Assembly (NCBI GenBank): GCA_963772515.1
Contig: CAVYXC010000004.1
Location: 361,131 to 425,130, forward strand
Length of the DNA: 64,000 bases
Direction of reading: 5' to 3'
Source: Vulcanimicrobiota bacterium
GTDB lineage: Bacteria; Vulcanimicrobiota; Vulcanimicrobiia; Eremiobacterales; Eremiobacteraceae
Below, in pieces: positions 103 through 58,116 of this stretch; the stretch's first letter is position 1; every line of letters begins with the position of its first letter. The position numbers were made by a program, and so were the translations under genes. The notes under the pieces were generated by a model. It was not told the origin of the DNA. It did not search any database and was given only the letters and a program-made list of their open reading frames with translations.

Positions 103-666
103 ATGTCCCTTGAGCTGTGGAGCACGGTCTTCTCCGGCGCGACGTTCATCGTCATCGCCGCGACCGCCATCGCCGCCCTCATCCAGCTGCGGCACATGCG
201 CACGGGCAATCAGCTCAACGCGCTGCTCACGCTCATGCAGATGTGGGATACGCCCGACATGCAAACGCATATCCAGTATTCGCGCACCGCACTCCAGCCG
301 AAATTCAAAGATCCGACGTTCCTCGCGCAATATGCGGAAGGGGGCCTCTCACGAGCCGAGCACCCGGAAATGCTCGTCGCTGACTATTGGGAGCAGATCG
401 GGACGTTCATGAAGTATTCGCTGGTGGACGAGCGATCGTGGCTCGACATATCGGCCCCACAGGTGCTGCGCTCGTGGGATGACCTTTGGCCTGCGATCGC
501 CGCGCAGCGAGCTCAATTCGGAGACTCCGCGTTTGAGAATTTCGAATACGTCGCCGTGCGGGCCAAACTGTGGCTCGCGCGCTACCCGGACGGCGTCTAT
601 CCACCCAATCTGCCCCGCATGGCGCAGCTCAAAAGGGCGCAACCTCAGCCCCCCGCGAGCACATGA
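103..666 (+). CDS. Uncharacterised membrane-anchored protein, paralog A of a 3-member family (N-terminal TM helix; conserved QLRHMR...NQL and FENFEY...YPPG motifs)
   Basis: ORF 82..666; likely start at second Met (MSLEL) by alignment with paralog 2414..2983; clear sequence similarity to ORFs 2414..2983(-) and 50387..50911(-); stop overlaps pfk start (ATGA). Confidence 0.5.
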   Translation: MSLELWSTVFSGATFIVIAATAIAALIQLRHMRTGNQLNALLTLMQMWDTPDMQTHIQYSRTALQPKFKDPTFLAQYAEGGLSRAEHPEMLVADYWEQIGTFMKYSLVDERSWLDISAPQVLRSWDDLWPAIAAQRAQFGDSAFENFEYVAVRAKLWLARYPDGVYPPNLPRMAQLKRAQPQPPAST

Positions 667-1916
667 GCGACTCAGGCCGCACGCTCGGCGTCTTGGTCGG
701 GGGCGGCCCGGCGCCGGGCATCAATAGCGTCATCGCCGCGGCGACGATCGAGGCGATCAACGAGGGCTGTGCAGTCATCGGCATCTATGACGGTTTCCAA
801 TGGCTGGCGCGCGGCGACACGACGCACGTGACGCGACTGGAGATCGACGACGTCAGCCGCATCCATTGGATCGGCGGCTCGATCCTGCGCACCTCGCGCA
901 CGAATCCGGCCAGAAACGACACGACCCTGGCTAGCTGCGTGGCCGCGTTGCGCGCGCTCGGCATCACCGACCTGGTCTGCATCGGCGGCGACGACACGAC
1001 GTTCGGCGCGGCCAAGATCGCTGAAGCTGCCGGCGGCGCGATCCGCGTCGTCACCGTGCCCAAGACGATCGATAACGATCTGCCCTTGCCCGAGAACATG
1101 CCGACTTTCGGCTTCGAGACCGCGCGCGCAGTGGGCTCGGGCATCGTCGAAAGCCTCATGGAGGATGCCAAGACGACCACGCGTTGGTACGTGGCGGTCT
1201 GCATGGGCCGCAAGTCCGGCGCGCTCGCGCTCGCGATCTGCAAAGCCGCCGGCGGCACGCTGGCGGTCATCCCCGAGGAATTCGCCGGCTCAAGCGTATC
1301 GCTCGAGTTGGTGGCGGACATCATCATCGGCAGCATGATCAAACGCCGCTGGATGGGCCACGACCACGGTGTGGCGATCGTCGCCGAGGGCGTCGTCGAG
1401 CGTCTCGACGAGCATTCGCTGGCGGGTCTGAAGAACGTGCCGCGCGATCAATACGGACATATCCGCATCAGCGATCTCGATGTCGGGGATGCGGTGCGCG
1501 GTTTCGTGCGCCAGCGGCTCGAGGCGCTCCACTTCGAGGCGACGGTGATCAAGAAGGAGATCGGGTACGAGCTGCGCTGCGCCAAGCCGGTGGCGTTCGA
1601 CGTCGAATACACGCGCACGCTCGGCTACGGCGCCGTGCGCTATCTGATGCGTGGAGGTTCGGGAGCGATGATCGCATTACGCGGCGGACGAGTCGAGCCG
1701 GTGACGCTGGATGACATGCTCGACCCCGCCACAGGGCGCATCCGCATCCGGGTCGTCGACACGGCGACCGAAGCCTACGAGGTCGGTCGCAAGTACATGA
1801 TCCGCTTGGAGGCGGCCGATCTGGAAGAGCCGCGACTAGGGGAGCTTGCCAATACCGCGGGCATGTCCGCACCCGCTTTCAAAGCGCGCTTCGCCCCCAC
1901 CGTTCTCGCCCAATAA
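663..1916 (+). CDS. pfk: 6-phosphofructokinase (GGDD motif suggests PPi-dependent type)
   Basis: Internal Met of ORF 570..1916 (MSDSGRTLGVLVGGGPAPGINSVI...); motifs GGGPAPGIN, CIGGDDT, PKTIDNDL typical of PFK family; ATG at 663 overlaps upstream stop. Confidence 0.85.
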   Translation: MSDSGRTLGVLVGGGPAPGINSVIAAATIEAINEGCAVIGIYDGFQWLARGDTTHVTRLEIDDVSRIHWIGGSILRTSRTNPARNDTTLASCVAALRALGITDLVCIGGDDTTFGAAKIAEAAGGAIRVVTVPKTIDNDLPLPENMPTFGFETARAVGSGIVESLMEDAKTTTRWYVAVCMGRKSGALALAICKAAGGTLAVIPEEFAGSSVSLELVADIIIGSMIKRRWMGHDHGVAIVAEGVVERLDEHSLAGLKNVPRDQYGHIRISDLDVGDAVRGFVRQRLEALHFEATVIKKEIGYELRCAKPVAFDVEYTRTLGYGAVRYLMRGGSGAMIALRGGRVEPVTLDDMLDPATGRIRIRVVDTATEAYEVGRKYMIRLEAADLEEPRLGELANTAGMSAPAFKARFAPTVLAQ

Positions 1917-1919
1917 TTC

Positions 1920-1945
1920 ATGGAGCGGTCGAATTTATTCGACCG
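1920..1945 (+). repeat. Copy a of dispersed 26-bp palindromic element ATGGAGCGGTCGAATTTATTCGACCG, between convergent pfk and anti-sigma genes
   Basis: Exact consensus; 9-bp inverted arms CGGTCGAAT/ATTCGACCG with 2-nt spacer; recurs at 5 other loci in window. Confidence 0.8.
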
Positions 1946-2368
1946 TTAGCTGTGCGCCCGCCGGCGCTTGAGCAGGCGCACTGTCGTGCCTTTGCCCTCG
2001 CAGTTGTGCTCGACGCGATCCATCAGCGTGCGCATCAAGAAGATGCCCATCCCGCGATCCGGCATCCGGCGGCTCGAAGTTTCGGCCAACGTCTGAACGT
2101 CGAAACCAACGCCGTTGTCCGATACCTCGATGACCAGATCGATGCCGTCGAACGTGCAGCCGAGGCTGAAGTGCCCGCTGGGCACGTGGCCGTGCTCGGT
2201 GGCGTTGTTGCACGCCTCGCCGACGGCCAGCGCGATGTCGCACACGTCCGCGAAATCAAAGCCGCAGTCGATGGCGAAGTCGGCGACCGCATGACGTGCC
2301 TCCGCAACGGAAGTAAAAGCGCTCGGGTAGAGCGCGTTGAAGCCGTCTCGATCTCTTGATTCACGCAC
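1946..2368 (-). CDS. Anti-sigma regulatory factor, RsbW/SpoIIAB-like Ser/Thr kinase (HATPase_c)
   Basis: 140 aa; HATPase motifs (EACNNATEHG, SDNGVGF, GMGIFLMRTL) typical of RsbW-like anti-sigma kinases; no STAS partner seen nearby. Confidence 0.7.
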   Translation of the reverse strand: MRESRDRDGFNALYPSAFTSVAEARHAVADFAIDCGFDFADVCDIALAVGEACNNATEHGHVPSGHFSLGCTFDGIDLVIEVSDNGVGFDVQTLAETSSRRMPDRGMGIFLMRTLMDRVEHNCEGKGTTVRLLKRRRAHS

Positions 2369-2413: not shown

Positions 2414-2983
2414 TCATAATTTCGTCTGTCGCGGCAAAAGTTGAGGCACGCCGGGCGGATATGAGCTCGGATGCTCGACCGCAAAGCGACGCGAAAGCGC
2501 GGCGAGGTACTCGAAATCCTCCCAGATCGCGTCGTCGCCATGCGCGAGCCGCTCGAGCTTCACATAGCCCTCCAAACGCCGCCACAGCCCGTCGATCGGC
2601 CCGCAGTACTGCTCGAAGAACAAGCGCTGGTCGACGACGCCGTTACGCACCAACGTGCCCATGACCTCGACAGCGTTGGCGATCATCAAAACGGCTTGGC
2701 GAAGCACTTCGTAGCGCTCGTTGCCGTGCGTCGCTCGCAGAGCCGCGTCGTCGGTGACGAACTTGCGGTACCCTTCGTCGTTCGAAAGATCGCCCTCGCG
2801 ATGGATCAGCGCCACAGCTTGCTGATGGGCGTCATCGTCGAGCATGGTGCGCAACGTGAGAAAGCCCGTGATCTGGTTGCTCGCCCGCAGGTGGCGCAGT
2901 TGCACGAGCGCCGCGATCGCTGACGCTCCGATGACGATCGCCGTCGCGATGGTCGCGATGGCGGTGATCAGTTCAAGCGACAT
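2414..2983 (-). CDS. Uncharacterised membrane-anchored protein, paralog B of the family, 45 bp upstream of the anti-sigma kinase gene
   Basis: 189 aa; N-terminal TM helix; VQLRHLRASNQ and WEDFEYLAALSRRFAVEHPSSYPPGVP motifs shared with paralog A. Confidence 0.55.
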   Translation of the reverse strand: MSLELITAIATIATAIVIGASAIAALVQLRHLRASNQITGFLTLRTMLDDDAHQQAVALIHREGDLSNDEGYRKFVTDDAALRATHGNERYEVLRQAVLMIANAVEVMGTLVRNGVVDQRLFFEQYCGPIDGLWRRLEGYVKLERLAHGDDAIWEDFEYLAALSRRFAVEHPSSYPPGVPQLLPRQTKL

Positions 2984-4226
2984 GTTCCCCCTTTGATCCT
3001 ACAGACGACCACGCCACCAGATTGACGCCGAAATAGTAGCCTAGCTCGCGATAATCGCTGATGTCCAGCTTCACCAGATCCGCAGGCCGGCCCGGCGCGA
3101 TGCAGCCGGCGACGCCGGCAGCATCAAGCGAGCGCGCCGCCATCACGGTGATACCGGCGATCACCTCAGGTGCGCTCATCCCTAGCCGGCGTCGAGCGAC
3201 GTGTGCGACCTCTTGCAGCGAGTAGCACGGACAGGTGCCCGGGTTGAAATCAGTTGCCAGCGCGACCGGAACGCCCTCGCCGATCAGCGCGCGCGCCGGC
3301 GCAAAGCGCGGCAAGCTGAGATACTGCGCCGTCGCCGGGCACAGCACCGCGATCGTGCCTGCGTCTCGCAGGTTAGCGATATCGGCATCATCGATGAAGT
3401 TGAGATGATCGGCCGTCATGCAGCGCAGCCGCGCCGCGAGTGCTGCACCGCCGCTTGCGCCAAGCTCGTCCGCGTGGATGCGCAGCTGCATACCGCGCGC
3501 CGCGCACGCTTCGAGAAAGCGTGCGCTTTGTCGCGGCGTGAAATACCCGCGCTCGCAGAACGCGTCGGCGAACCGGGCGATGCCCGTCTCGGCCGCTGCG
3601 GGAAGAATCGTCGCGATGAGCTCGTCGACGAACGCGTCGTAGGAGGTGAATTCGGGCGGCAGCGCGTGCGCGCCGCAAAACGTCGCGATGACGTGCGGTA
3701 TATCAGCGGCGCGATCCAACGAGGCCAACGCCTGGAGCGACCTGCGCTCGCCCGCGGGAGTGAGCGTGTAGCCCGTTTTGATCTCCGCCGTCGTCGTGCC
3801 ATGTTCGAGCATGGTGGCCAGCCGGCGTCGTCCGGCCTGGATCAATCCATCGAGATCGAGCGCGCGCGTCTGCTCGACCGTGTAGGCGATGCCCAGTCCG
3901 GGCGGCTCGCCGCGTGACAGCGCCTCGAAGTCGGCGACGCGGTCACCCGCGAAGAGCGCGTGGGTGTGCGCGTCGACGAACCCGGGCATGACGACGCACC
4001 CCTGCGCGTCGATCACCTCCACATCGGCATATGGAGCGGCCGAATCTATTCGACCGTGCATGACCTCCACGATCACGCCATCGCGCACGATAACGGTCGC
4101 GTCGCGCATGATGCCTAGATCGTCTTCGCCGACGCGGGCGTCGCCGTTGACGCGCGCCGCCAGCGGCGCCATGGTGAGCAGCGTCGCGTTGACGATCGCA
4201 TACGATGCCGCCGTCGGCGCTACCAC
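2973..4226 (-). CDS. hutI: Imidazolonepropionase
   Basis: ORF 2973..4319; amidohydrolase motifs (PGFVDAHTH, KTGYTL, IHADE); probable GTG start overlapping ftcD stop, alternative start at 4319. Confidence 0.8.
   Translation of the reverse strand: MVAPTAASYAIVNATLLTMAPLAARVNGDARVGEDDLGIMRDATVIVRDGVIVEVMHGRIDSAAPYADVEVIDAQGCVVMPGFVDAHTHALFAGDRVADFEALSRGEPPGLGIAYTVEQTRALDLDGLIQAGRRRLATMLEHGTTTAEIKTGYTLTPAGERRSLQALASLDRAADIPHVIATFCGAHALPPEFTSYDAFVDELIATILPAAAETGIARFADAFCERGYFTPRQSARFLEACAARGMQLRIHADELGASGGAALAARLRCMTADHLNFIDDADIANLRDAGTIAVLCPATAQYLSLPRFAPARALIGEGVPVALATDFNPGTCPCYSLQEVAHVARRRLGMSAPEVIAGITVMAARSLDAAGVAGCIAPGRPADLVKLDISDYRELGYYFGVNLVAWSSVGSKGEHVA
4031..4056 (+). repeat. Copy b of 26-bp palindromic element, antisense and in-frame inside hutI (encodes HGRIDSAAPY loop)
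   Basis: ATGGAGCGGCCGAATCTATTCGACCG, 2 mismatches to consensus. Confidence 0.7.
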
Positions 4227-5095
4227 GTCACCGCGCGCGGATCGATCGAGTCGAGATGGAGATAGTATGCGGCAGATTCGGCGATCGCTGAGAGCGGTGA
4301 CAGCCCGACCAATTCGCACCCGGCGACGGAGACGCCGGCGGCTGCCGCCTCGCGCCGGATCAGTTCGGTCACGCGATACAGCGGAATCGCATTGACGTCG
4401 ACGACGTTCATCGACACCTGGACCATCGAATCGGACAGCGCAAAGCCGAGTGCCTTGATGCCGACCAATCCGCCGCTGCGCCGGCGCACGGCAAGCGCGA
4501 TACGCTCGGCCAGTGCCAGATCCCCGCTGGCGAGGTTCACGTTGAAAGCGATGAGGAAGTTGCGCGCGCCGACCGCCACGATGCCCGCGCTTGGATGCAG
4601 CGCCGGTTCGCCCGTGTCGGGATGGCGCGCTCGATCTTTGACCGTCTCGATCAGCCCTTCGAACTGGCCCTTGCGCACGTTGCCCAAGTCGCGCCGTTCC
4701 GGCCGCGTCGCCGCGAACTCATAGAAGTAAGACGGCAGCTGGTATCGCTCCCACAGCTGCGCGGCGCACTGGCGCGCGAGCCCGACCGCGTCGTCCATCG
4801 TCGCGCCGCTCACGGGGATGAACGGGATGACGTCGACCGCCCCCATGCGCGGGTGCTCGCCGCTATGCGAGCGCAGATCGACGCGCTCGATCGCCGCGCC
4901 CGCGAGCCGCACGGCGGCGCCGAGCACGCCTTCGCCGCTGCCCACGAAGGTGTAGACAGAGCGGTTGTGGGCGCTGTCGCTTTGCGTGTCGAGCAACACG
5001 ACATCCGGACCGGCCGCCGCGGCGCCGATCGCCGCGATGACATCCGCGCGCCGGCCTTCCGAAACGTTAGGAACGCACTCGAAGACGCTTGCCAT
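4220..5095 (-). CDS. ftcD: Glutamate formimidoyltransferase (formiminotransferase domain only)
   Basis: Internal Met of ORF 4220..5995 ([16 protein letters not shown]...); FT-domain-like; N-terminal part of long ORF is antisense shadow of mccB; ATG verified at 5093-5095. Confidence 0.75.
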
Positions 5096-5164: not shown

Positions 5165-6772
5165 ATGGCCGTCATAGAATCGCGCGTCGATCCCGCGTCG
5201 CCAGAGTTCGCCGCAAATCGCGAGCGCTTTGTGTCGCTGCTCGAAGAGCTTGCGGCGCGCCACGCGCTCGTCGCGCGCGGCGGCGTCGCTGAAGCGCTGG
5301 CAAAACACGTCGCGCGCGGCAAGCTGCCTGCGCGCGAACGCGTCGAGCTGCTCATCGACCCGAATTCCGCGTTTCTCGAGTTTTCCGCGCTCGCCGCATG
5401 GGATATGTACAAGGGCGACGCGCCGAGCGCCGGCATCGTCACCGGCATCGGGCACGTCGAAGGCGTCGAGTGCATCATCGTCGCCAACGACGCCACCGTC
5501 AAAGGCGGCACCTATTTCCCGCTGACGGTCAAAAAGCATCTGCGCGCGCAGGAGATCGCCGAGCAGAACCATCTGCCATGCATCTATCTGGTCGACTCGG
5601 GCGGCGCGTTCTTGCCGCTGCAGGACCAGGTCTTCCCGGACCGCGAGCACTTCGGGCGTATCTTCTATAACCAAGCGCAGATGTCGCGCAAACGCATCCC
5701 GCAGATCGCGTCGGTGATGGGGTCGTGCACCGCCGGCGGCGCGTACGTCCCCGCGATGTCGGATGAGACGATCATCGTCAAAGGCGAAGGCACCATCTTT
5801 CTCGGCGGCCCGCCCTTGGTCAAAGCGGCGACCGGCGAGATCGTCAGCGCCGAAGACCTTGGCGGCGCGGACGTGCACGCGCGCATCTCCGGCGTCAGCG
5901 ACCACTATGCGCTCAACGACCGTCACGCGCTCGCCATGTGCCGGGAGATCGTCGCCAACCTCAATCGCGCCAAGCGCACTCCCTGGCCGGTGCAAGAATC
6001 GCGTCCGCCCAAGTACGATTCACAAGAGCTCTACGGCATCGTGCAGCGCGATTGGCGCAAACCGTACGAAGTACGCGAAGTGATCGCGCGCATCGTCGAC
6101 GGCAGCGAGTTCCACGAATTCAAGACGCTCTACGGCGAGACGCTGGTGTGCGGCTTCGCCCACATCGAAGGCAACCCGGTGGGCATCTTGGCCAACAACG
6201 GCATCTTGTTCTCCGAAAGCGCGCTCAAGGGCACGCACTTCATCGAGCTGGCGTGCCAGCGCGGCGTGCCGCTCGTGTTCTTGCAGAACATCACCGGTTT
6301 TATGGTCGGTAAGAAATATGAAGAGGGCGGCATCGCCAAGGACGGCGCCAAGCTCGTGATGGCGGTGGCCAACGCGAACGTTCCCAAATTCACCGTCATC
6401 ATCGGCGGCTCGTTCGGCGCCGGCAACTACGGCATGTGCGGGCGCGCGTTTTCGCCGCGCCAGCTGTGGATGTGGCCCAACGCTCGCATCTCGGTCATGG
6501 GTGGCCCGCAAGCGGCCAACGTCCTGTTGACGGTCCGCCTCGAAGCGCTGGAGAAGAAGGGCGCGACGATGACCGAACAGGAGCGCGCCGAATTCATGCG
6601 TCCGACGCTTGAGAAATATGAGGCCGAAGGCAACCCCTACTATAGCACTGCGCGGCTGTGGGATGACGGCATCATCGATCCGGCCGACACGCGGCGCGTG
6701 TTGGGCATCGGCATCTCAGCTGCCGCCAATGCCCCGCTGGAACCCACGACCTTCGGCGTCTTTAGAATGTAG
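5165..6772 (+). CDS. mccB: Methylcrotonyl-CoA carboxylase carboxyltransferase (beta) subunit
   Basis: Internal Met of ORF 4595..6772 ([22 protein letters not shown]...); acyl-CoA carboxyltransferase family; final codons ATG TAG lie in palindromic element copy c1. Confidence 0.85.
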
Positions 6773-6782
6773 CGGTCGAATT
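6767..6782 (+). repeat. Half copy c1 of palindromic element (ATGTAGCGGTCGAATT), contains mccB stop codon
   Basis: Left half of consensus only; 9 nt upstream of full copy c2. Confidence 0.6.
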
Positions 6783-6791
6783 ACAGATAGG

Positions 6792-6814
6792 ATGTAGCGG
6801 TCGAATTTCGACCG
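6792..6814 (+). repeat. Copy c2 of palindromic element (ATGTAGCGGTCGAATTTCGACCG), in mccB-hydratase intergenic region
   Basis: Consensus arms with shortened spacer. Confidence 0.75.
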
Positions 6815-14800: not shown

Positions 14801-14922
14801 CCGAAGCCGCGGCGATTAAATCGCAGTTCGATGTCCTGATGCCAGATGTTCAGCGCTACCTAAGCACACGCGGCGTCGCGACGCTGTACGTCACGACGGC
14901 CGACGTCTGCCCGCGCTCCTAG
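11872..14922 (+). CDS. Secreted BNR/Asp-box repeat protein (sortilin/VPS10-like or GH74-like beta-propeller)
   Basis: 1016 aa; signal peptide; at least 8 Asp-box motifs (S/TxDGGxTW). Confidence 0.7.
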   Translation: MKIGHTSARVLLAAGAILVSGLSSPPASADSGVLGDLHWRSIGPGQSGGRVAAVAGTNADPYLYYIGAADGGVFRTDNGGVTWDDVWARQPVAAIGALAIAPSDKRTVWVGTGESKPRNDASYGDGVWRTTDAGASWSHRGLERSYIVSRLLIDPKNPDVVIAGALGNPFRDSADRGVYRTTDGGVSWRHTLYVGPQSGASDMACDAHCHLVFAGIWQFRRQPWTFTSGGPDDGIYRSTDGGVHWSKLTGHGLPSGLMGRIGLAVAPSDARRVYALIESQQGVLWRSDDAGSHWRLMNRDDALNQRPFYMTRLEVDPRNADHVYFMSEDLFESKDGGKTFSQLKSALHQDHHAMWIAADGTRMIEGDDGGAPISVDGGVTWEWRYNIAIGQIYHLGYDTMNPYHVCGGFQDNDSFCGPADSLDPLGILTANWRDVGNDSDGIVTIPDVLDPDIVWNVGVKDLNGQLNTFLLNARQSYDVSPYARDTNGMALAGLPYRFNWEAPLAISSLNPKTVYFGGNVLFKTIDYGRTWQVISPDLTRDEPAHQQAAGGAVTLDVSGAEFYDTLLSIAPSPLDANVIWVGTDDGLVQVTRDGGAHWSLVAPPAPPYGRIENIEASPFAAGSAFATVDRHFMGDRTPYVFTTDDYGATWRSIASGLPAEQYAHVVRQDPRNPDVLYLGLEQGIWISFDRGAHWQSLQGDLPVTAVRDLRVQPTADDLLVATHGRGFYILDDLTALQALTQARAAGNYLFAPRTTYAWYRGWYTMYGVGEGEGSAPAGQFAGENPSDGAIITYELAATPGMKPQISFLDASAHPVRLLVGSDHPGLNRLAWSLTEEPPIKWKSVKEWNQGPDDGAAVPPGQYTVRLCVNGKALEQPLTIQADPRAPWTQSDYVARYVFLHALNGELSQIDAELNTLDYLTGKAPLDARGRSLYEQLTSNPLNAEDDQHRPDRLRERIQILLDDPALSQGPPTQAQLAEAAAIKSQFDVLMPDVQRYLSTRGVATLYVTTADVCPRS

Positions 14923-17900
14923 ATCTTCGTCGAGAGGCTGAACACCAATTGGTGGTACGGGTTGATCGAGCCCGGGCCATACGGGTAGTAGCTCTCGCCC
15001 ACGTAAGCCGGATTGAACTGGCCGAAAGGCGCGTTCGCGTAGAAGAAGTTGTCTTCGTATGAGACGACCTGTTTGCTCGCCGGGTATTCCCATGGATAGC
15101 CGCGGTTGCCGACGATCGTGAACACGTTGGTGTACAAGATGCTCGCCTTGATGTTCTTCGCGACATCATGCGAGACTGCCAGGTTCATCGTGAGCCACCA
15201 CGGGCCGTTGAACGAGCCCAAACCGTCGAATTGCTTCGTGTATGGGTCGGGCCCGTACGTCACCTTTCCTTGCGGATCGGGGAAGAGCAGCGGGTCGCCG
15301 TACGGGTTGCCAGACTGATAATTGAAAGTCGGAGAGACATCCCAGCCATGCGTTTGGTACGTCGCATTCAGGTTGATCACCCAGGCGACATCGTAGGAGG
15401 AACCGGTGTTGCCGGGCGATTCGAAGAGAGACGGCTTGTAATAGGCGTTCGGGTCGAAGAGCGGATAGTTCGTCCCGTAGGCCGAGTTGTAGTTGCTGAT
15501 CTGCGTGTTGATCGTGTCGATGAAATTAGTGCCGCCCAAAGGCGCCTCGAAGCGGATCTTGGAGTCGGTATAGGTGGCGGCAAACGTGCCGCTCCATCCG
15601 TCGCCTACGTGCGAGTCTCGTGCCAGGAATTCCACACCTGACACGCGCGCCGCGCCGAAGTTGTAACCGGTTTCGAAGGTGGGTTGCAGCGGGTTCACGG
15701 GCAGGTTGAGGATTTGGTTCCGCGTGACGCGGTAGTATGGCGACACCTTGATCGAGAAGCTGTTCGCGAAGTCGTGCTCGTACGAGGCGTCGTAGTTCGT
15801 GCTGTCCTGCGGAAGGACGTTGTGGACCGCCGTGAAGCCCAGTCCATCGTAGAAGTTGTTGAGCACCGCCACCGTCGCCGTCGCGCCCCATTGCGGCGCC
15901 GCGATGTATTCCTCGTAGGCCGTGGCCGGCGGCTGCACATATCGGCCCACGGAGAAACGAAAGACGTCGTTCGGACTCGCCGAATATGTCGCCCCGAAAC
16001 GCGGGCTGAAATAGTTGTAGGAGAGCGAGCCCGAGACGTTGGTCCAATTGCCGGCGCCGGGCAGCGCGGAAGCGCCGAACGTGCCGTCACCGGACGGACC
16101 GCTCGCGTTGAGGAAGACGGCGCAGATCTCGGTCGGTGCGTACGCATAGCCGTGCAAGCACGTGCCCGACTGGTTTTCCGCTTGCTCGGCGATCCCGTTA
16201 GGCCCCGTGATCTGCAAGGGCATGAGCGGTACGACGAAGAGGTCGTAGCGCGCGCCGATATCAAACGTCCAACGGTCGCTTGGCCGCCACGTGTCGGCGA
16301 TCGCGGCGTCCCATGACGTCGGGCTGATGTTGTTGTAGTACGCGAACGGCCCGTTGATCTGCGCGACCGCCTCGGGCGTCGCCGAGTTGTAGAAATTCGA
16401 GCAACCGTAGTCAAGGCTGCCGGCGCCGATCGAGTAGTCGACCGTTGTCGACGGGAAGCAGTTGACGAAGTCATCGGGGTAGGGGAAATTGTTGGCGTAG
16501 TTGTAGCGCAAACTGCGTTCCTGCAGATAATCGACGTCGGCGCGCAGCAGGTGCTGTTGGCTCAGCTGGTTTTGGTAGTTCGCGGTCAACCCGCCCTCAT
16601 TATCGTGCAAATCGTAGAACGAATCGCCGAGCCAAGCGTTGGTCGCTTGATCGAAGTTCCACAATGAGTAGATCGCATAGCCGTACAGGCGGAGGAACGA
16701 CGAGCTGGTCAGCGCGCGCGTGTAGCCGATCTTTTCGATCGCGGACTGCGTCCGCTGCGTGTCGAGGTAGTTCGGCGGCATGTCTCCCGTGCTGCCGCCG
16801 GCGGATGGCCAAGTAAGCGTATAAAGGTTGCCAGGGCTGGGATTGAAGAGCTGGCCGGGTCTCCCGGTGTACAGCACTCCGTATGGCCACACCATCGGCG
16901 CAGGGGGTGTCGGACATGGATTTGAGAGCGCCACCTCGTAGCCGCAGTTGGCAACGGTTGTCGGATCCACGAACGGTCCAGAGTAGAGAAACGGGTTCAC
17001 CGTCGCGCCGACCATGTAGAGCGCCTGTAAGTCGTCGGAGAGCCCGTTGTGGTCGATTGACCAATTGAGGTTGAAGACGGTGTTGGTCATCCTTGCTGAG
17101 GGATTGGGGAAGCTCGTCCAGGCGCCTTGCGAGATCGGTATGTTGAAACTCGTCGCCGTGTTCGGGCAGGTGATGTTGCCGGTCGTGAATGCGACGGCGG
17201 GGCAGCCGACGTCATTCGCGGGAATGTTGATCGTCGAGTTGTCGAGGTTGCTGCGGTTGCCGAAGTTGTATCCGCCATTGACCCACAGCGTCGAGATGTA
17301 ATAATTGAATTTTCTGTTCGAAGTGCCGCCGTACACATCGGCCTGTACGGCGTTTGTCAGTAGGGGGGTGCCGATGACCAGCGAGACGTCCGCGCCTCCC
17401 GGGTAGCTGCCACGGTGGATTATCTCATTGATATAACCCGACATCGAGCGGCCCGCGTCGGCGGGCTCGCCGCCGGTGTACACTTCAAGACTCGACAGGC
17501 CGTTGGTCAAGAAAGCCGTCGCGTTGGCCGAGTCGAACGCACGGTTGAGCGGAATCCCTTCAAGCTCGAAGCCTACCTGGTCGTTGGATCCTCCACGGAT
17601 GAAAAGCGACCCGTTGCCTGCATATCCGCCACCGGTTCCCACCGTGCGAGTGACGCCTGGGAGCGAACCTACGATGGCGTTCTGGCTGTAGAGCGTTTCC
17701 GCGCCGCCCACACTGCCTTGATACTGATTCATGGCCTGCGAGCTGACGGTGTACAAATCGCCGGTGACGCTCTTGCTCACCAAGCCGGCCGCCGCGGTCG
17801 TCGTTATCCGGCCCAGCGTCCTGATGGTCACCTGCATGACGATCTCGACACGCGCGTTCTGGTCGGCCAACACGGTGATGCCGGGAAGGGTTACGGGTGC

Positions 17901-18161
17901 ATAGCCTTCCTTCACCGCGGTCACGCGGTACGTGTCGGGCGCAAGGTTCAAGAACGAGAAGAAGCCGGTCGCGCTCGAGAGCGTCGAGGAGGCCTGTGAG
18001 GGCGATGTGACCGTCACTTTCGCTCCCGCGATGGGGGCGCCGTGATCGTTTTTCGTAGTGCCGGAGATGACGCCGGTCGTGCCGGCGTCGGCGGCGAGCG
18101 GTGCGATGGCCAATACGAAAGACAGGGCGAGCGTTAAGCCCCTAAAGCCACGAAAAAGCAT
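14919..18161 (-). CDS. TonB-dependent receptor-like outer-membrane protein with N-terminal carboxypeptidase regulatory-like domain
   Basis: 1080 aa; signal peptide; CarbopepD_reg-like N-domain; plug-like region (LFIRGGSNDQVGFELEGIPLN); very long beta-rich C-terminus; RBS GGAGGG. Confidence 0.65.
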   Translation of the reverse strand: MLFRGFRGLTLALSFVLAIAPLAADAGTTGVISGTTKNDHGAPIAGAKVTVTSPSQASSTLSSATGFFSFLNLAPDTYRVTAVKEGYAPVTLPGITVLADQNARVEIVMQVTIRTLGRITTTAAAGLVSKSVTGDLYTVSSQAMNQYQGSVGGAETLYSQNAIVGSLPGVTRTVGTGGGYAGNGSLFIRGGSNDQVGFELEGIPLNRAFDSANATAFLTNGLSSLEVYTGGEPADAGRSMSGYINEIIHRGSYPGGADVSLVIGTPLLTNAVQADVYGGTSNRKFNYYISTLWVNGGYNFGNRSNLDNSTINIPANDVGCPAVAFTTGNITCPNTATSFNIPISQGAWTSFPNPSARMTNTVFNLNWSIDHNGLSDDLQALYMVGATVNPFLYSGPFVDPTTVANCGYEVALSNPCPTPPAPMVWPYGVLYTGRPGQLFNPSPGNLYTLTWPSAGGSTGDMPPNYLDTQRTQSAIEKIGYTRALTSSSFLRLYGYAIYSLWNFDQATNAWLGDSFYDLHDNEGGLTANYQNQLSQQHLLRADVDYLQERSLRYNYANNFPYPDDFVNCFPSTTVDYSIGAGSLDYGCSNFYNSATPEAVAQINGPFAYYNNISPTSWDAAIADTWRPSDRWTFDIGARYDLFVVPLMPLQITGPNGIAEQAENQSGTCLHGYAYAPTEICAVFLNASGPSGDGTFGASALPGAGNWTNVSGSLSYNYFSPRFGATYSASPNDVFRFSVGRYVQPPATAYEEYIAAPQWGATATVAVLNNFYDGLGFTAVHNVLPQDSTNYDASYEHDFANSFSIKVSPYYRVTRNQILNLPVNPLQPTFETGYNFGAARVSGVEFLARDSHVGDGWSGTFAATYTDSKIRFEAPLGGTNFIDTINTQISNYNSAYGTNYPLFDPNAYYKPSLFESPGNTGSSYDVAWVINLNATYQTHGWDVSPTFNYQSGNPYGDPLLFPDPQGKVTYGPDPYTKQFDGLGSFNGPWWLTMNLAVSHDVAKNIKASILYTNVFTIVGNRGYPWEYPASKQVVSYEDNFFYANAPFGQFNPAYVGESYYPYGPGSINPYHQLVFSLSTKI

Positions 18162-40720: not shown

Positions 40721-40746
40721 ATGGAGCGGTCGAATAAATTCGACCG
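40721..40746 (+). repeat. Copy e of palindromic element (ATGGAGCGGTCGAATAAATTCGACCG) at 5' end of gltX
   Basis: Consensus with AA spacer; encodes MERSNKFDR in gltX frame. Confidence 0.75.
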
Positions 40747-43023: not shown

Positions 43024-43701
43024 ATGCAACGAGACTCCATCTTCCGGCAGATACGCCTCGACTGGCGCGCGTGCTTTGAGCGCGACCCCGCGGCGCGCAA
43101 CTGGCTCGAAGTGCTGCTGGCCTATCCGGGTTTTCATGCCCTCTTCTGGCACCGGCTGATCATCCATCCGCTGCACCGCGCCGGCATACCCGTCATTCCG
43201 CGCGTGCTGTCCAACATGTCGCGGTTTTTCACCGGCATCGAGATCCACCCGGGCGCGGAGATCGGCTCGGGTCTGTTCATCGATCATGGCATGGGCGTCG
43301 TGATCGGCGAGACGACCGAGATCGGGCGCAACTGCACGCTCTATCAAGGCGTGACCTTGGGCGGCACGTCGCTGCAGCGCGGCAAGCGCCACCCGACGCT
43401 TGAAGACAACGTCATCGTCGGCGCCGGCGCCGGCATCATCGGCGCGGTGGTCATCGGCGCCGGTTCGAAGATCGCGGCGGGGGCGGTCGTCGTCAAATCG
43501 GTCCCGCCGAACTGCACGGTTGTCGGTGTGCCTGGCCGCGTGATCTATCAGGACGGCAAGCCGGCCGAACCGGTGTTGCCGCGTGTGGACATGCCCGACC
43601 CCGAAGCGGACGCGATCGCCGCGCTGCAGCAACGGGTCGAGGCGCTCGAGATGGGCTTCCGAAAGCTCGAAGAGCCGGATGGCAGTAAGACTCTACAATA
43701 G
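43024..43701 (+). CDS. cysE: Serine O-acetyltransferase
   Basis: 225 aa; hexapeptide repeats; SAT N-terminal domain. Confidence 0.85.
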
Positions 43702-45152
43702 CCGCACCCGGTCCCTCGAAGAGCTCCAGCCGCTCGAACCCGGGCGGCTGACGATGTACGTGTGCGGCATGACGCCCAGTTTTCACCCGCATCTGGGTCA
43801 CGCGCGCACGTTCTTGACGTTCGACGTCTTGCGCCGTCACCTCGCCGCGCGCGGCTACAAGGTCGACTACGTCCAAAACGTCACCGATATCGACGACCGC
43901 ATCATCGAGCGCGCCGCCACCGAAGGCGTGCCCTGGGACGACGTTGCCACTCGTTATCTGGCGGAGTACGAGGCGTGCGCCACAGCGGCTCGGGCTTATA
44001 CCGCCCGATGACGAACCGCGCGCGACTCAGGAAATCTCTTCCATTATAGAGCTCATCTCGGGGCTCGTCGCCAAGGGCGCGGCGTACGAGTCGGGAGACG
44101 GCGTCTATTTCGCGGTGGACGAGGGCGTATTTCCGCATTACGGTGAGCTCAGCCACCAGAGCATCGAAGAACTGCGCGCCGGCGTGCGCGTCGCCGTGCG
44201 CGAGGATAAGCGCGGGCGGTTGGACTTCGCGTTGTGGAAGAAGGCCAAGCCCGGCGAGCCGAGCTGGCCGAGCCCCTGGGGCCCCGGCCGGCCGGGCTGG
44301 CACATCGAGTGCTCGGCAATGGCGCGCAAGTATCTCGGGGATCAGATCGACATCCATGGCGGCGCCGCCGACTTGATCTTTCCGCACCACGAGAACGAAG
44401 TCGCGCAGACCGAGACGTTCACCGGCAAGCATCCGATGGCGAATTTCTGGGTGCATGCGGGATTGCTCAACGTCGACGGTCAGAAGATGAGCAAGTCGCT
44501 TGGCAACTTCACGCCGCTCACCCAGATGCTCGACCGCTATCCGGCGGCCGTGATCCGCTACCTGTTCCTGCAGACCGGCTATCGCAAACCGAGCAACTTC
44601 ACGGCTGACTCGATCGAAGCGGCGGGCAAGGGATTGCGCGGGCTGTACGCCGACCTCGACAAACTCCGCGCCCGCGCGCGCCTAAACCCCATGGAGCGGT
44701 CGGATTCATCCGACCGGCAACGTGAGAGCGCGATCGAAGAATTCAACGCATTTCTCGATGACGACCTGAACACCGCGGGCGCCATCGGCTGGCTGCAGAC
44801 CTATGTGAAGCCTTCGATTAAAGATCGTACAGGGGCCGATGTTGTTGCCGTCGTCGAGCAGGCGCTCGAACGGCTTGGCCTGCCGGTGGACGCCGAGAAC
44901 GCCGGCGTCGCTGCGACGTCATCGCAGCTCAAGTTGAGCAAAGCGGCGCGCATGGAGTTCTCGATCATCACCGGCGATCGCGACGCACCCGACGACGACT
45001 TGGTCTCAAAGGTCGTCGCGATCCGCGAAAAGGCGCGCAAGTCCAAAGATTGGGCGCAGTCGGATCGTCTGCGCGACGCGCTCGCGCGCGCGGGCATCGC
45101 GGTCAAAGACACCGCGACGGGTTCGCAGTGGAGCGTCGATGGCGGCAGATGA
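43679..45152 (+). CDS. cysS: Cysteine--tRNA ligase, interrupted by apparent +1 frameshift near 43980-43990
   Basis: N-part in ORF 43583..44011 (MAVRLYNSR...HLGHART), remainder in ORF 43944..45152 (PPDDEPRAT..., KMSKS); removing one nt around 43984 restores a continuous class-I motif alignment; contains in-frame element copy f. Confidence 0.75.
44691..44716 (+). repeat. Copy f of palindromic element (ATGGAGCGGTCGGATTCATCCGACCG) in-frame inside cysS
   Basis: Arms carry compensatory A>G/T>C changes preserving perfect 9-bp inverted repeat; encodes [10 protein letters not shown]. Confidence 0.75.
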
Positions 45153-46657: not shown

Positions 46658-46681
46658 GGCACGCGACAATCCAGCCACGTA

Positions 46682-46713
46682 GGACCCGAGCCACGCTCGG
46701 GTCCTTTCATTTC
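46682..46713 (+). terminator. Rho-independent terminator after sigH
   Basis: GGACCCGAGC-cac-GCTCGGGTCC stem followed by TTTCATTTC. Confidence 0.65.
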
Positions 46714-50386: not shown

Positions 50387-50911
50387 TCAGCGGCGAGCAG
50401 CGAATTGGTTCGGATCGTAATTGGGAACTTTCGGGCGCGGGATGTCTCTCCACCATGCGCTGTAGTTGGCGAGCCATTCGAAGTTCTCGAACAAGTACTC
50501 GTTCTGGTTGTAGCGGCGCCAGTGGACGACGAAATCTTTGATCGTCGCCCACCGGTCGCGCAGCATGAAGCCGACCGCGTCGCAGATCAGCGTTACGTCG
50601 AGCACTTCGCGGCGCGCGAGACACGCGATGGTCTCGACGAATTGTCCGACCATGGAGAGCGCGCGCTCGTCGTCGGAGCCGAAGAATCTCTCCGCGATGT
50701 CTTTGTCCGTCGGATAGCGCCCGGCGACCCCGCGCAATTGCGTGAAGACGTGGACCACTTCGGTAGAGGTGAGCCGGTCGATAGCCTCCAGGATGGCCAC
50801 CGCGTTGCGCTCGTGCTCCATCTGACGCACTTGCCGCGAAAGCATGTACGTGGTGAAGACGACCGTCGCAAAAGCGATGACCAGCGACGCGATCGGGACG
50901 ATTTGCTGCAA
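50387..50911 (-). CDS. Uncharacterised membrane-anchored protein, paralog C of the family, 11 bp upstream of TPR gene
   Basis: 174 aa; TM helix; QVRQMEHERNAVAILEAI and FENFEWLANYSAWW motifs homologous to paralogs A and B. Confidence 0.5.
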   Translation of the reverse strand: MQQIVPIASLVIAFATVVFTTYMLSRQVRQMEHERNAVAILEAIDRLTSTEVVHVFTQLRGVAGRYPTDKDIAERFFGSDDERALSMVGQFVETIACLARREVLDVTLICDAVGFMLRDRWATIKDFVVHWRRYNQNEYLFENFEWLANYSAWWRDIPRPKVPNYDPNQFAARR

Positions 50912-54224: not shown

Positions 54225-57200
54225 ATGAAAGGTTTGCTGAAATTCGCCTTTTTGACGATCGTGGTGCTGCTTGTCCAGGGAACATGGGCACTGGCAGGCG
54301 TCACTGGATCGTTGAATGGCACAGTTCTGCAGGAGCAAACGCACGCGCCCGTCGCGCAAGCGAAGGTCACGGCGTCCTCTGCGAGTCAGACCTCAAGCAC
54401 AACGACCGACAATGGTGGTCACTTCGGTTTCGTCTCGTTAGTCCCCGACACGTACAGCGTGACGGTGGCCAAGGAAGGCACGATCGAGACGTTCGTGCAG
54501 CGCGGTGTGACCGTGCTCGCGGACCAAGTCCAACAACTCACGCTCGTGGTGAGGCCGTCGATCAAGACGCTGGCGACGGTCACGACGCGCGGGTCGACCG
54601 ATCTCGTCAAACCCGGCACGACTGCTAACGTCTACTCGGTCAACGCGGCCGCGCAGGCGCGCAGCGCAGTGCTCGGCGGCGGCGGCGGCGCCAACCAAGG
54701 CTACTCCGCCATCGCAGCGCTCCCTGGGGCCTACGTTCCGCCGGGTCAATCGGGCTGGTTCCAAGTCGTCAACATCCGCGGCGGCGACTACGACCAGGTC
54801 GGCTACGAGTTCGACGGCGTGCCGGTGAACCGGTCGTTCGACAACTACGCGTCGAGCAATCTGTCCGCCATCGGCCAGCAGGAGCTGCAGCTGTACACGG
54901 GCGCGGCGCCTGCCACAGCCGAGGGTCAGGGCTTGGCGGGCTACATCAACCAGGTCATCAAGAGCGGCACCTATCCGGGCTACGCCAATGTCGACCTTGG
55001 GATCGGCGGCCCGAACCTGTACAACAAAGCGAGCTTCGAAGTCGGCGGTGCGACCCCGAACCGCAACTTCTCCTACTACGTCGGCGTGGGCATCGCCAAC
55101 CAAAGCCCGCGCTACTATGACGAGAACAACGGCGCTAGCCAGAACTCGACCTACGGGTTGGTGTATGACATGGCACCGTCGGCGACCGTCGGCGGCACCT
55201 GCGGCACCGACGCCGTGCCTTCGAACTATGTGAAGTGCTACGCAAACACCGCGAACTCGATTCTCGGCCAGCCGGTCGGGCCAGGCGGCTACTACCTTGG
55301 ATCGATGAACATCCTCACGCCGAAGAATGAGCAAGACCATGAAAACGTCTTCAACTTCCACTTCGGCATTCCGCACAAGAACGACTCCGGTAAAGACGAC
55401 ATCCAACTGCTGTACGACACGTTCCAGCTGTACACGAATTTCTACAACAACCCCAACGATTGGGGCGGCGGCCCGAGCTTCTTCTCGCACAACCCTGGAA
55501 CGGTCGAAGGCCCGGGTCAGCCGTTGTACTTCTCAGGCGCACAATACATGACGCCTGTCGGCACGCTATTCACGTCGGCTGCGCCTGGACAGGTCAACAA
55601 CGTCGTGCCCTACGCTTACCCGAACGAAGGCAACGCCTTCCTGAACAACTCGTTTACCGGCACGAATATCCCGGGCAACAGTTATGAAGGGTATAGCAAC
55701 GGACTGTCCATCTACAAGCTCCAGTATCAGCACAACATCGGCACGTCGTCGTACCTGCGCGTGTACGGATACATCGACTACTCGTGGTGGTTCATTCAGG
55801 ACCCGATGGGGGCTTATAATCTGGACTTCGCCCTCGCCCCCGACTACGAGCTGTCGACGCATACGCGCGGCGCATCGGCAAACTACGTCAATCAGCTCTC
55901 GCCCAAGAACCTGCTCAACATCGAAGGCACGTATTCGACGGCGAGCACCGTGCGCGACAACAACACGCAGATGTTCGACACGCTGTCGGGCGCGCGCGGC
56001 GACGTGGCACAGCTCGTCAGCGCCACTAACCCGACCAGCGGCATCTGCTACAACGTGGCGAATCCGGGCGTGCCGGCATCGTGCCTCAAAGCCAGCGCCA
56101 ACGCAGGGCCGCTGGACGCTAACTACCTCACGCTTGGCAACCTCACGTGCGGCGCCAACTGCCTGGGATCGATCGGCAACTTCTTCGGTCCCGGTGTGGG
56201 CATACCGGCCCCAAGCGCTACAGCGTGTGGCGGACCCTGCGCGTGGTACGTGTCCGAGAACGGCCCATATGCCACGTACAATACGGTGACACCCCGCTTC
56301 TGGGGCGTGTCAGCGCAAGACACCTGGAAGCCGAACGATCGCCTGAACTTCAACATCGGCGTGCGCGATGACATCTACACGTTCGTCTACACGCCGACGG
56401 GGACAGGCACGCGACCGTACTGGTTCAACGCCTGGAACGCGGTGTCGTGCGTCAATCCGCTCTTCAACGGTGGAAATCCGATCGACGAGACGTCGCCTGG
56501 CGGAGGCCTAACGCCTCAGGTGGCCGGCACGCCGTGTTCTGCGCTCGGAGCTGGGTTCACGCAGGCGACGCTGACCGATACGACGGCCAACGGCGGCCAG
56601 ATCACCTACAACGAACTCGAACCGCGGTTCGGCGGAACGTACTCGTTCAGCACCAACGACGTGCTGCGCTTCTCGGCGGGCCGCTACTCGGAGCCGGCCA
56701 ACGCGGCGTTCCAACAGTACGACAGCTTGGACCAAGACCTGCCTGAGCATCTGCTCGGGTCGCTGTTCTACAAGTACGGGTTCACGTCGCCTAACCACGT
56801 GGTCAGCCCGTCGATCTCGTATAACTACGACCTGTCGTGGGAGCACCAGTTCGCCAACACGCAGACGTCGCTCGTGCTGACGCCGTTCTTGCGCAAGACG
56901 AACAACCAGGTCCAGCAGATCTACATCAGCCCGCAGACGGCGTTCGTTTCCGGCCTGAATGTCGGTAACGAGACGAACCTCGGGCTCGAGTTCTTGGCGA
57001 ACATGGGCAACTTCAACAACAACGGCTTCGCCGGCCAGCTGGCGTACACGTATACGCACAGCTACGTCACATACAACCCGCTACCGACCGGACAGTCCGT
57101 GTTGGGGCAGGACAACATCGATATCCAGCACTACAACTCGTTCACCTCGGCCTGCGTCGGTGCGGTAGCCTCCTCTAGCCCCACAAGCATGTGCGGCACG

Positions 57201-57953
57201 GACGGCGGCAACAACGCGCTGCCGACCGAAGTGGGCGGCGTCGCCAACCCGTACTACAACGCACCAGCACAAGGGCTGCTTAGCTCGACCGCACAGTACG
57301 CGCCGTACTCCATCGTTCCCGTCGGCGTACAGCTGTCGTCGCTGAGCTACGTGGTGCCGCACGTCGTGACGCTCATCGTCCAGTACAAGAAGGACAAGTG
57401 GGCGTTCGTTCCGTCGTTCCAGTTCCACGGCGGACAGAAGTACGGCGCCCCCGAGACGACGTACGGCTTCGATCCGAGCAGCTGCACGGCGGCGTTGGCG
57501 AACCCGGTCACGGGCGACCCGCGCTATCCGTACGGCGGCAGCGGCACAGCGGCCGACGCGACGAGCTGCACGGGTTCGCTGGTCGTCCCCGATCCGTACA
57601 CCGGCAAATTCGATCAACCCGGTGCATTCACTGAGCCGAACCAGTACAGCTTGCACATGGGCATCTCATATGCCGCGACGCCTCGGGTCTCGTATCAGCT
57701 CAACCTGGCGAACATCGTCAACTACTGCAGTGGCGGATCTAAGGAGCCCTGGATCTTGAACGACAACCACTGGTGCCTGTATAGCAATAGCGCCGGGTTC
57801 TTCCCGCCGGTGGGCAACTTCTACAATCCCGGGGATACGATCCAACCGCAGTTCAAGTATCCCTACTTCGTCAACGCGACAGGCGACAACGGCACGACCT
57901 ATGGCGTGGTCGTTCCGTTCAACGCCACCTTCAACATCCAGATCAAGATGTAA
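54225..57953 (+). CDS. TonB-dependent receptor-like outer-membrane protein with carboxypeptidase regulatory-like N-domain (paralog of 14919..18161)
   Basis: 1242 aa; signal peptide; CarbopepD_reg-like domain; plug-like region (VNIRGGDYDQVGYEFDGVPVN). Confidence 0.65.
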   Translation: MKGLLKFAFLTIVVLLVQGTWALAGVTGSLNGTVLQEQTHAPVAQAKVTASSASQTSSTTTDNGGHFGFVSLVPDTYSVTVAKEGTIETFVQRGVTVLADQVQQLTLVVRPSIKTLATVTTRGSTDLVKPGTTANVYSVNAAAQARSAVLGGGGGANQGYSAIAALPGAYVPPGQSGWFQVVNIRGGDYDQVGYEFDGVPVNRSFDNYASSNLSAIGQQELQLYTGAAPATAEGQGLAGYINQVIKSGTYPGYANVDLGIGGPNLYNKASFEVGGATPNRNFSYYVGVGIANQSPRYYDENNGASQNSTYGLVYDMAPSATVGGTCGTDAVPSNYVKCYANTANSILGQPVGPGGYYLGSMNILTPKNEQDHENVFNFHFGIPHKNDSGKDDIQLLYDTFQLYTNFYNNPNDWGGGPSFFSHNPGTVEGPGQPLYFSGAQYMTPVGTLFTSAAPGQVNNVVPYAYPNEGNAFLNNSFTGTNIPGNSYEGYSNGLSIYKLQYQHNIGTSSYLRVYGYIDYSWWFIQDPMGAYNLDFALAPDYELSTHTRGASANYVNQLSPKNLLNIEGTYSTASTVRDNNTQMFDTLSGARGDVAQLVSATNPTSGICYNVANPGVPASCLKASANAGPLDANYLTLGNLTCGANCLGSIGNFFGPGVGIPAPSATACGGPCAWYVSENGPYATYNTVTPRFWGVSAQDTWKPNDRLNFNIGVRDDIYTFVYTPTGTGTRPYWFNAWNAVSCVNPLFNGGNPIDETSPGGGLTPQVAGTPCSALGAGFTQATLTDTTANGGQITYNELEPRFGGTYSFSTNDVLRFSAGRYSEPANAAFQQYDSLDQDLPEHLLGSLFYKYGFTSPNHVVSPSISYNYDLSWEHQFANTQTSLVLTPFLRKTNNQVQQIYISPQTAFVSGLNVGNETNLGLEFLANMGNFNNNGFAGQLAYTYTHSYVTYNPLPTGQSVLGQDNIDIQHYNSFTSACVGAVASSSPTSMCGTDGGNNALPTEVGGVANPYYNAPAQGLLSSTAQYAPYSIVPVGVQLSSLSYVVPHVVTLIVQYKKDKWAFVPSFQFHGGQKYGAPETTYGFDPSSCTAALANPVTGDPRYPYGGSGTAADATSCTGSLVVPDPYTGKFDQPGAFTEPNQYSLHMGISYAATPRVSYQLNLANIVNYCSGGSKEPWILNDNHWCLYSNSAGFFPPVGNFYNPGDTIQPQFKYPYFVNATGDNGTTYGVVVPFNATFNIQIKM

Positions 57954-57976: not shown

Positions 57977-58016
57977 GGCCGGCGGCTCTGCGTGCCGCCG
58001 GTCTCTCTTTTTTCGC
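57977..58016 (+). terminator. Rho-independent terminator after receptor-like gene
   Basis: GGCCGGCGGC-tctgcgt-GCCGCCGGTC stem followed by TCTCTCTTTTTT. Confidence 0.7.
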
Positions 58017-58027
58017 CCGGCTGTGCT

Positions 58028-58093: not shown

Positions 58094-58116
58094 ACCGGAA
58101 ATAGGAAGTTTGTAGG

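Follow-up and report, generated by a model that had tools for sequence, protein, structure and literature searches.

How does a perfect palindrome come to lie, in frame, within the gene of a tRNA synthetase, and what kind of element is it? The question is raised by a 26-nt segment (positions 44691 to 44716) of a 64-kb stretch of contig CAVYXC010000004.1, hereafter called the window, which falls inside cysS, the gene for cysteine--tRNA ligase (CysS). A sequence-only reading of the window had proposed that this segment is an in-frame insertion tolerated in an essential gene. According to the analysis described here, it is very probably a GTAG-tagged repetitive extragenic palindrome (REP) of a member of the phylum Candidatus Eremiobacterota (formerly WPS-2), to which CysS homologues assign the genome. 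This judgment includes the history proposed for the element below, and the evidence supports regarding the cysS copy as one case of a general in-frame habit of this repeat family.

The palindrome in the CysS linker

The locus comprises two features:

44691..44716, plus strand: flagged copy, ATGGAG followed by CGGTCGGAT-tc-ATCCGACCG, in frame and in sense in cysS
43679..45152, plus strand: cysS, encoding cysteine--tRNA ligase; an additional base at 43984 divides the gene between two frames

The element (ATGGAGCGGTCGGATTCATCCGACCG) consists of the head ATGGAG and two arms at 44697-44705 and 44708-44716, which are perfectly complementary over 9 nt and separated by a 2-nt gap. The hairpin effectively has an 8-bp stem and a 4-nt loop, with a predicted RNA folding energy of -14.3 kcal/mol and a z score of -3.3 relative to shuffled sequences. 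The element is read within the open reading frame (ORF) 43944..45152 through the codons CCC ATG GAG CGG TCG GAT TCA TCC GAC CGG, which encode (P)MERSDSSDR, i.e., residues 337 to 346 of the repaired 490-residue CysS with the preceding proline included. A search of the window with the hairpin pattern, allowing up to three mismatches, returned five copies versus 0.08 expected, and none of 100 shuffles reached five; together with the perfect arms, this bears out the palindromic in-frame element that had been proposed.

The repair mentioned above concerns the extra base at 43984 (CCAC[A]GCGG), which shifts the reading frame of cysS and whose deletion gives an intact CysS. The base is also present in the 98%-identical sister assembly L001 and absent from orthologues at 81 to 92% identity; the closest CysS proteins (98 to 99% identical) read straight through this position. 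It represents either a long-read assembly error shared with L001 or a real lesion in an essential gene. Since intact orthologues carry the element, the frameshift leaves the question of its nature unaffected. The gene hutI, described below, is called with only 248 residues in the ENA version of the assembly (L001, protein P0147), yet its ORF is intact in the window, which suggests further indel differences between assembly versions and calls for caution over the cysS frameshift.

Within the protein, the element lies in the variable stretch that separates the catalytic core from the anticodon-binding domain, as had been supposed: the Pfam match of the catalytic domain ends 20 residues before the element-encoded peptide, and the match of the anticodon-binding domain CysS_C starts about 100 residues after it. 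The cysteinyl-tRNA synthetase (CysRS) of Coxiella (PDB 3tqo, 462 residues), which has about the same length as that of E. coli (461 residues), was used for comparison. The alignment opens an 8-residue gap exactly at the element, close to the earlier estimate that this CysS is about 10 residues longer than its E. coli counterpart. An AlphaFold2 model of a CysS fragment, based on 64 homologues, places the peptide where the chain turns from one long helix (residues 203 to 229 of the fragment) into the next (236 to 254), with predicted local distance difference test (pLDDT) values of about 80 at the peptide and 93 to 95 around it. Judging from this model, the copy would sit at the tip of a helical hairpin between the two domains.

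Conservation of the segment in all CysS orthologues would have spoken against an insertion, and it was not found: across 120 Eremiobacterota homologues the linker, i.e., the segment after the motif LYxDLDxLR, is hypervariable. Its length is 15 to 17 residues in most lineages of the phylum versus 23 residues in the clade of the window. Intact orthologues of 465 to 491 residues at 90 to 99% identity carry the element (P0001-P0005; L002, L004), which, along with the dispersed family described below, supports the idea of a tolerated in-frame insertion. In L004, with a CysS 92% identical, the same forward copy is found in the linker, and in L002 (90%) the linker holds a forward copy of a subfamily with AGT/ACT in the stem. 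The linker copy of L003 (81%) is reversed, bears a GTAG tag, and has a decayed 3' arm, that of L006 (75%) is a deletion derivative (ATGGAGCGG|CCGACCG), and in L005 (79%) an unrelated hairpin is present. Related linker copies with 10-bp arms (CGGTCGAGAT) occur in L089 and L090, although their CysS proteins are only 57 to 59% identical; the L090 copy takes a symmetric form whose tag is paired on both sides. In most of the phylum this linker holds no hairpin. The tie between an extra loop and element-bearing genomes is looser than had been expected, as the linker is also occupied in several distant lineages, by copies in either orientation or by other hairpins. The element in cysS was seen in independent assemblies, based on short and long reads, from JGI, ENA, Logan, and NCBI.

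The cysS copy matches the family consensus at 23 of 26 nt, and none of the three mismatches disrupts the hairpin. A stem of exactly CGGTCGGAT/ATCCGACCG occurs at no locus other than cysS, in the window and in L004; it differs from the consensus by a compensatory change of an A:T to a G:C pair (GGAT/ATCC), while the encoded peptide varies between orthologues (DSS, DVS, DLS, SLL). As the stem remains paired while the residues drift, constraint or self-correction of the palindrome acts on the nucleic acid rather than on the protein. Only this pair counts as an in-place compensatory change. The AAT/ATT to AGT/ACT difference between orthologous copies, initially read in the same way, was dropped because AGT/ACT characterizes a subfamily of 16 copies. 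A recurrent peptide of the CysS linker, VHCAIEA, was considered as a second palindrome on the basis of back-translation and rejected, the underlying DNA (GTGCATTGCGCGATCGAG) being neither palindromic nor repeated.

The repeat family in the window and in related metagenomes

The other tagged palindromes of the window are the following:

1920..1945, plus strand: consensus copy ATGGAGCGGTCGAATTTATTCGACCG, filling the 29-nt gap between a convergent pfk-like gene (570..1916, plus) and a HATPase gene (1946..2368, minus)
4031..4056, plus strand: copy inside hutI (imidazolonepropionase-like, 2973..4319, minus), antisense and in frame, encoding GRIDSAAP
6767..6814, plus strand: head-to-tail doublet, truncated ATGTAGCGGTCGAAT, then ATGTAG+CGGTCGA-att-TCGACCG at 6792-6814; syntenic copy in L087
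22081..22136, plus strand: head-to-tail doublet between the divergent genes hutH and cmk, with a truncated copy (ATGGAGCGGTCGAC) at 22081 followed by a full one of consensus sequence at 22111-22136
40721..40746, plus strand: gltX copy, its ATG being the annotated gltX start codon, N-terminus MERSNKFDR
46679..46703, plus strand: member of a second GTAG-tagged family (family B), GTAG + GACCCGAGC-cac-GCTCGGGTC, directly after sigH

The five full copies of the family to which the cysS element belongs (family A) share the asymmetric 5' extension ATGGAG; with three partial or variant copies at 6767, 6792, and 22081, all eight lie on the plus strand. The loop that holds the hutI copy is hypervariable and closely precedes the HxH metal-binding motif; the copy is kept in the 88% identical orthologue of L087. 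In the truncated copy at 6767, the TAG at 6770-6772 serves as the stop codon of a carboxyltransferase gene. The gltX copy has a flipped palindrome core with the loop AA, which is absent among at least 141 metagenomic copies, and an unchanged tag. It is kept at its site in four lineages (window, L002, L004, and L006) and absent in L003, L005, and L090; the true start of gltX may be a GTG about 60 nt downstream, before VRVRFAP. The family B copy is trailed by the T-rich CTTTCATTT, has syntenic counterparts in L002 and L115, and may also act as the terminator of sigH.

Three further sites in the window resemble the repeats in one respect or another. Untagged, GC-rich palindromes are found at 22144-22163 (CGGCCGAA-cgac-TTCGGCCG, 7 nt past the copy at 22111) and at 7989-8006 inside a biotin carboxylase gene (CGGTCGG-cgtc-CCGACCG); they may be decayed or unrelated hairpins. 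At 15560-15600, inside a large minus-strand gene (14919..18161), ATGGAG is followed by a weak 5-bp hairpin (CGGCA-cgtt-TGCCG); this only tag-like match on the minus strand of the window represents either chance or a decayed copy.

A metagenome scan with the pattern GKAGCGGTCGAATNNATTCGACCG yielded at least 147 exact copies on at least 120 stretches (735 kb). The family statistics given here were taken from at least 141 unique copies (percentages refer to the 141 listed), and those on gene context from 130 unique copies among the matches listed, using a self-trained codon-usage gene caller whose calls agree with the known annotation of the window. The unit spans about 26 to 27 nt: (A)T is followed by the unpaired tag G[G/T]AG and by a perfect 9-bp stem (CGGTCGAAT/ATTCGACCG) that encloses a TY loop. 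Of the tags, 76 (54%) read GGAG and 65 GTAG, with positions 1, 3, and 4 invariant, and the loop is TT in 81 (57%), TC in 46 (33%), and never AA. Outside the unit, conservation stops at positions -2/-1 (A in 58%, T in 91%) and at position +1 after the stem (T in 52%).

The distribution of the copies is strongly skewed toward gene borders, 79 of 130 (61%) being intergenic though noncoding DNA makes up only 9% of the sequence. Another 20 reach across the end of a gene, in 16 cases the 3' end, and most copies lie within 0 to 20 nt of a stop codon or supply it: the TAG of the tag ends the upstream gene in nine cases, and in eight a convergent gene is closed by the TAA that the loop gives on the opposite strand. 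Divergent spacers are not avoided (13 of 76, in proportion to spacer length). The remaining 31 copies (about 24%) reside inside genes, 16 in sense and 15 in antisense orientation, with 19 deep inside. The Pfam-confirmed hosts of such deep copies include DnaE, PurL, MutS2 (two copies), FabH, LarC, a YegS-like kinase, and others, and the element is located between domains or at a domain edge. The reading frame acts as a filter, 14 of the 15 antisense copies being in the frame that gives xGRINSTAP, and 8 of the 16 sense copies in the frame that gives (M/L)ERSN(L/S)FDR. Overall, the element contributes stereotyped peptides of 8 or 9 residues, i.e., MERSNxFDR, GRINSTAP, WSGRIYST, and GAVEFIRP.

Copies are spaced at roughly one per 8 to 13 kb, from which a load of about 200 to 330 copies per 2.65-Mb genome may be extrapolated. 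Close pairs are direct (head-to-tail) and 24 to 43 nt apart. Doublets of two full copies at 36 to 43 nt are common at metagenome loci, and a truncated copy comprising only tag and left arm recurs 24 to 30 nt upstream of a full one (6767-6814, 22081-22136, and L004 6938-6987). Copies tend to share one orientation locally, as do all eight in the window and those of 17 of 21 multicopy contigs, and are oriented randomly with respect to neighboring genes (23:18 in codirectional spacers).

That whole units come and go is apparent from two comparisons. A clean filled/empty pair, L006 versus L003, with flanks 80% identical, defines a 27-nt unit composed of C+ATGTAG and the palindrome, and a second pair, L191 versus L133, a unit of about 26 nt. 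At least two further GTAG-tagged families exist besides family A, namely B (GTAG+GACCCGAGC...) and D (GTAG+GA+CTCGAGC...), and different families or orientations share sites: at the 5' end of gltX, L003 carries an in-frame copy of family B in place of family A, the hutI loop holds family A in reverse in the window and L087 and family D in forward orientation in L088, and an intergenic site carries copies of opposite orientation in L120 and L096.

Class assignment and competing explanations

GTAG-tagged REPs measure 20 to 40 nt, with a stem of 6 to 13 bp, loops that are often TY, and a tag that is degenerate at its middle positions (GYAG, GYRG, GTRG, GTMG, and GTGG are listed); they occur in high copy number, form subfamilies that differ by complementary stem changes, and are mostly intergenic, within about 20 nt of gene 3' ends (PMC3733652). 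The family described here has a 9-bp stem, a 2-nt loop of the TY type, and a unit of 26 to 27 nt; in all copies the tag is unpaired and directly abuts the stem on its 5' side, GGAG being a new variant at position 2. It is dispersed in high copy number (five full and three partial copies in 64 kb in addition to the metagenomic ones), shows complementary stem changes, and shares the preference for gene 3' ends and an in-frame minority; its tolerance of divergent spacers is unlike the published pattern. In 2013, Di Nocera, De Gregorio, and Rocco described REPs lying in frame inside genes, with hosts such as DnaE and, in three species, tRNA synthetases (PMC3733652). Eremiobacterota were not among the phyla of that survey, and the intragenic share found here is high (about 24% by these gene calls). 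With regard to recognition, the REP-associated tyrosine transposase (RAYT) binds only one strand and depends critically on loop polarity and the last two tag bases (PMC8266576); the invariant AG of the tag and the fixed loop polarity correspond to these determinants. Short, perfect palindromes characterize the REPs of group 3 (PMC8266576), such as the 23-nt SMAG/REPSm of Stenotrophomonas maltophilia, which the present unit resembles in this respect.

Other known repeats fit less well. REPINs, i.e., REP doublet-forming hairpins, consist of two inverted REPs, whereas singletons and direct doublets dominate here and only L090 shows a symmetric form. In REP/RAYT systems, REPs are inherited vertically and persist for long times at orthologous sites (bioRxiv 10.1101/2021.07.10.451892, 10.1101/2022.05.22.493013); the gltX, cysS, hutI, and carboxyltransferase copies share this persistence with the REPIN-RAYT systems of Pseudomonas and E. 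coli studied by Bertels and Rainey. Rickettsia palindromic elements (RPEs) are alike in behavior only: they too are in-frame palindromes in genes that stay functional, DnaE included, and add peptides at surfaces or loops, but stem and tag differ and there is no sequence relationship, and their hosts are obligate intracellular alphaproteobacteria. RPE-1, at about 100 to 150 bp, is far longer than the unit here. RPE-4 and RPE-6 have been equated with REPs of the CGTC type (PMC3733652), as opposed to the tag GKAG here. In contrast to miniature inverted-repeat transposable elements, which span 70 to 300 bp with terminal inverted repeats of an insertion sequence and a target-site duplication, the unit has only 26 to 27 nt and no repeated flanks. 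It also differs from an intrinsic terminator, with a T at position +1 in only 52% of the copies listed, no T run, and the cysS, hutI, and gltX copies located inside coding sequence. As a lead, the small dispersed repeats of heterocystous cyanobacteria (Elhai et al. 2008) are said to measure about 21 to 27 nt, to look mobile, and to lie in some cases inside genes; they differ in sequence and phylum and reportedly have no GTAG-type tag. A search of the window against Rfam revealed no matching family.

The history that we favor for the cysS copy is as follows. A copy entered the linker, at the putative tip of the helical hairpin, before the lineages with at least 90% identity diverged, and has been inherited vertically since then. 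It adds about 6 to 9 loop residues that the enzyme tolerates, its stem having been kept paired by compensatory change while the encoded amino acids drifted. Spread of the family may have been driven by a RAYT or another HUH-type tyrosine transposase acting on the folded single strand. The conserved AG of the tag would follow from this, as would the fixed polarity of the loop and the shared local orientation. Selection would then remove copies except in spacers, at gene ends, in permissive loops, and in tolerated reading frames.

Several observations weigh against this assignment and history. A clean empty cysS site was not found in a close relative, so that an insertion there is deduced from family membership, the extra length, and the clean filled/empty pairs elsewhere. 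In CysS cluster 18 and in HutI, element-bearing loops are no longer than element-free ones; insertion events are thus not always a simple gain of nine codons. All copies compared between genomes at 88 to 92% protein identity are syntenic and provide no evidence of recent movement. About half of the tags (54%) are GGAG, which is not listed in PMC3733652, and the doublets are head-to-tail, whereas REP dimers are usually head-to-head or tail-to-tail and only rarely head-to-tail (PMC3733652). A REP-RAYT system, or REPtron, is defined by a RAYT gene (Y1/HUH tyrosine transposase, PF01797-like) flanked by its cognate REPs; no RAYT/Y1-transposase gene was detected with two HUH...Y..N[PQ] patterns in the window and about 0.9 Mb of related REP-bearing contigs, and a tblastn search with an approximate E. 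coli RayT sequence over about 1 Mb of element-bearing DNA gave a best E value of 0.97. Finally, orientation is uncorrelated with the majority gene strand of the contigs (21:21), which leaves the local co-orientation unexplained; the GC skew is flat across the window and offers no gauge of the replication direction.

Among the alternatives, the most substantial is that REPs are targeted to hairpins or REP remnants already in place (homing), or supplant them in a conversion-like manner, so that the same codons act as a recurrent landing pad. It would account for sites whose occupant differs in family or orientation from one lineage to another (5' end of gltX, hutI loop, cysS linker, and L120 versus L096), for the recurrent truncated-plus-full doublets, and for occupied loops that are no longer than empty ones. 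However, strong purifying selection alone would also concentrate the survivors in a few tolerant places, the loops are rich in indels, which weakens length comparisons, and the flanks hold no conserved target motif beyond the AT at -2/-1 and the T at +1; we consider homing unlikely. Several unrelated REP families, in either orientation, recur at the same few codons of CysS (linker), HutI (loop), and GltX (N-terminus) in deeply diverged Eremiobacterota. The broader proposition that this reflects site-directed, frame-compatible turnover, for which a clean 27-nt unit was seen once, rather than random insertion and selection is similarly doubtful; if true, REPs would continually supply essential proteins with new loop variants. 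A different view takes the cysS hairpin as a selected cis-acting element, i.e., an mRNA structure for translation or decay or a binding site for a protein or for single-stranded DNA binding, rather than a passenger. Family hairpins in the same linker of CysS proteins as distant as those of L089 and L090, the compensatory stem pair amid freely changing amino acids, the stable fold (about -14 kcal/mol), and the persistence of copies at syntenic sites agree with this view. Compensatory change, however, requires no selection, as palindromes can correct themselves via template switching, and identical units occur in all contexts with random orientation (23:18 in codirectional spacers, 16 sense versus 15 antisense in genes). 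In the cysS linker itself, the reversed copy of L003, the unrelated hairpin of L005, the deletion derivative of L006, and the lack of any hairpin in most of the phylum likewise tell against such a function, as does the negative Rfam search, and a selected role is accordingly improbable.

The two remaining explanations concern the nature of the sequence as such. Inverted half-sites of the DNA-uptake type or for recognition by a protein would give a similar architecture, resembling inverted uptake-sequence pairs near gene ends, and a perfect 20-bp palindrome would suit a dimeric binding protein. In the window, however, the 9-mer half-site never occurs alone and is always part of a tagged element, on which ground an uptake-sequence-like model was rejected; furthermore, the unit is strand asymmetric in tag and loop polarity, and the filled/empty pairs show it coming and going as a whole, making half-sites a very remote prospect. 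Still less credible, to the point of being negligible, is a native CysS sequence or an assembly artifact that resembles the repeat by chance. Indel errors or frameshifts do occur in the assembly, as illustrated by cysS at 43984 and the truncated ENA hutI call, but the match to the consensus at 23 of 26 nt with three hairpin-preserving differences, the recovery of the same element in cysS from independent short-read and long-read assemblies, and the chance expectation of 0.08 per window all point to a genuine copy of a REP.

Gene neighborhood and significance

The cysS gene is embedded in the order ispDF-gltX-cysE-cysS-rlmB-sigH. Elsewhere in the window, three paralogous DUF4760 genes were noted (82-666, 2414-2983, and 50387-50911), with four or more in L088; this family of small membrane proteins seems to be expanded in the lineage. 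Toward the end of the window, from 58000 to 64000, the GC content falls from about 65% to 56 to 60%, and the codon-usage caller finds few confident genes. The ORFs of this part look like those of secreted or outer-membrane proteins and adjoin a CarboxypepD_reg-type protein of 1,242 residues (54225-57953); the region may be foreign or fast evolving.

The basic phenomenon is a known one: intragenic REPs, including those in tRNA synthetases, have been described, and the cysS case adds to them without opening a new question by itself. Through this family, the range of GTAG-tagged REPs comes to include Candidatus Eremiobacterota, a soil phylum that is for the most part uncultured, and with it a GGAG tag variant and an unusually high share of in-frame intragenic copies. 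The 26-nt units create apparent starts (gltX), stops (carboxyltransferase and 17 metagenomic cases), and stereotyped peptides in essential proteins, and recognizing them avoids miscalled gene ends and spurious "conserved motifs." At the same time, the copies mark insertion-tolerant loops of CysRS, DnaE, PurL, MutS2, and FabH.

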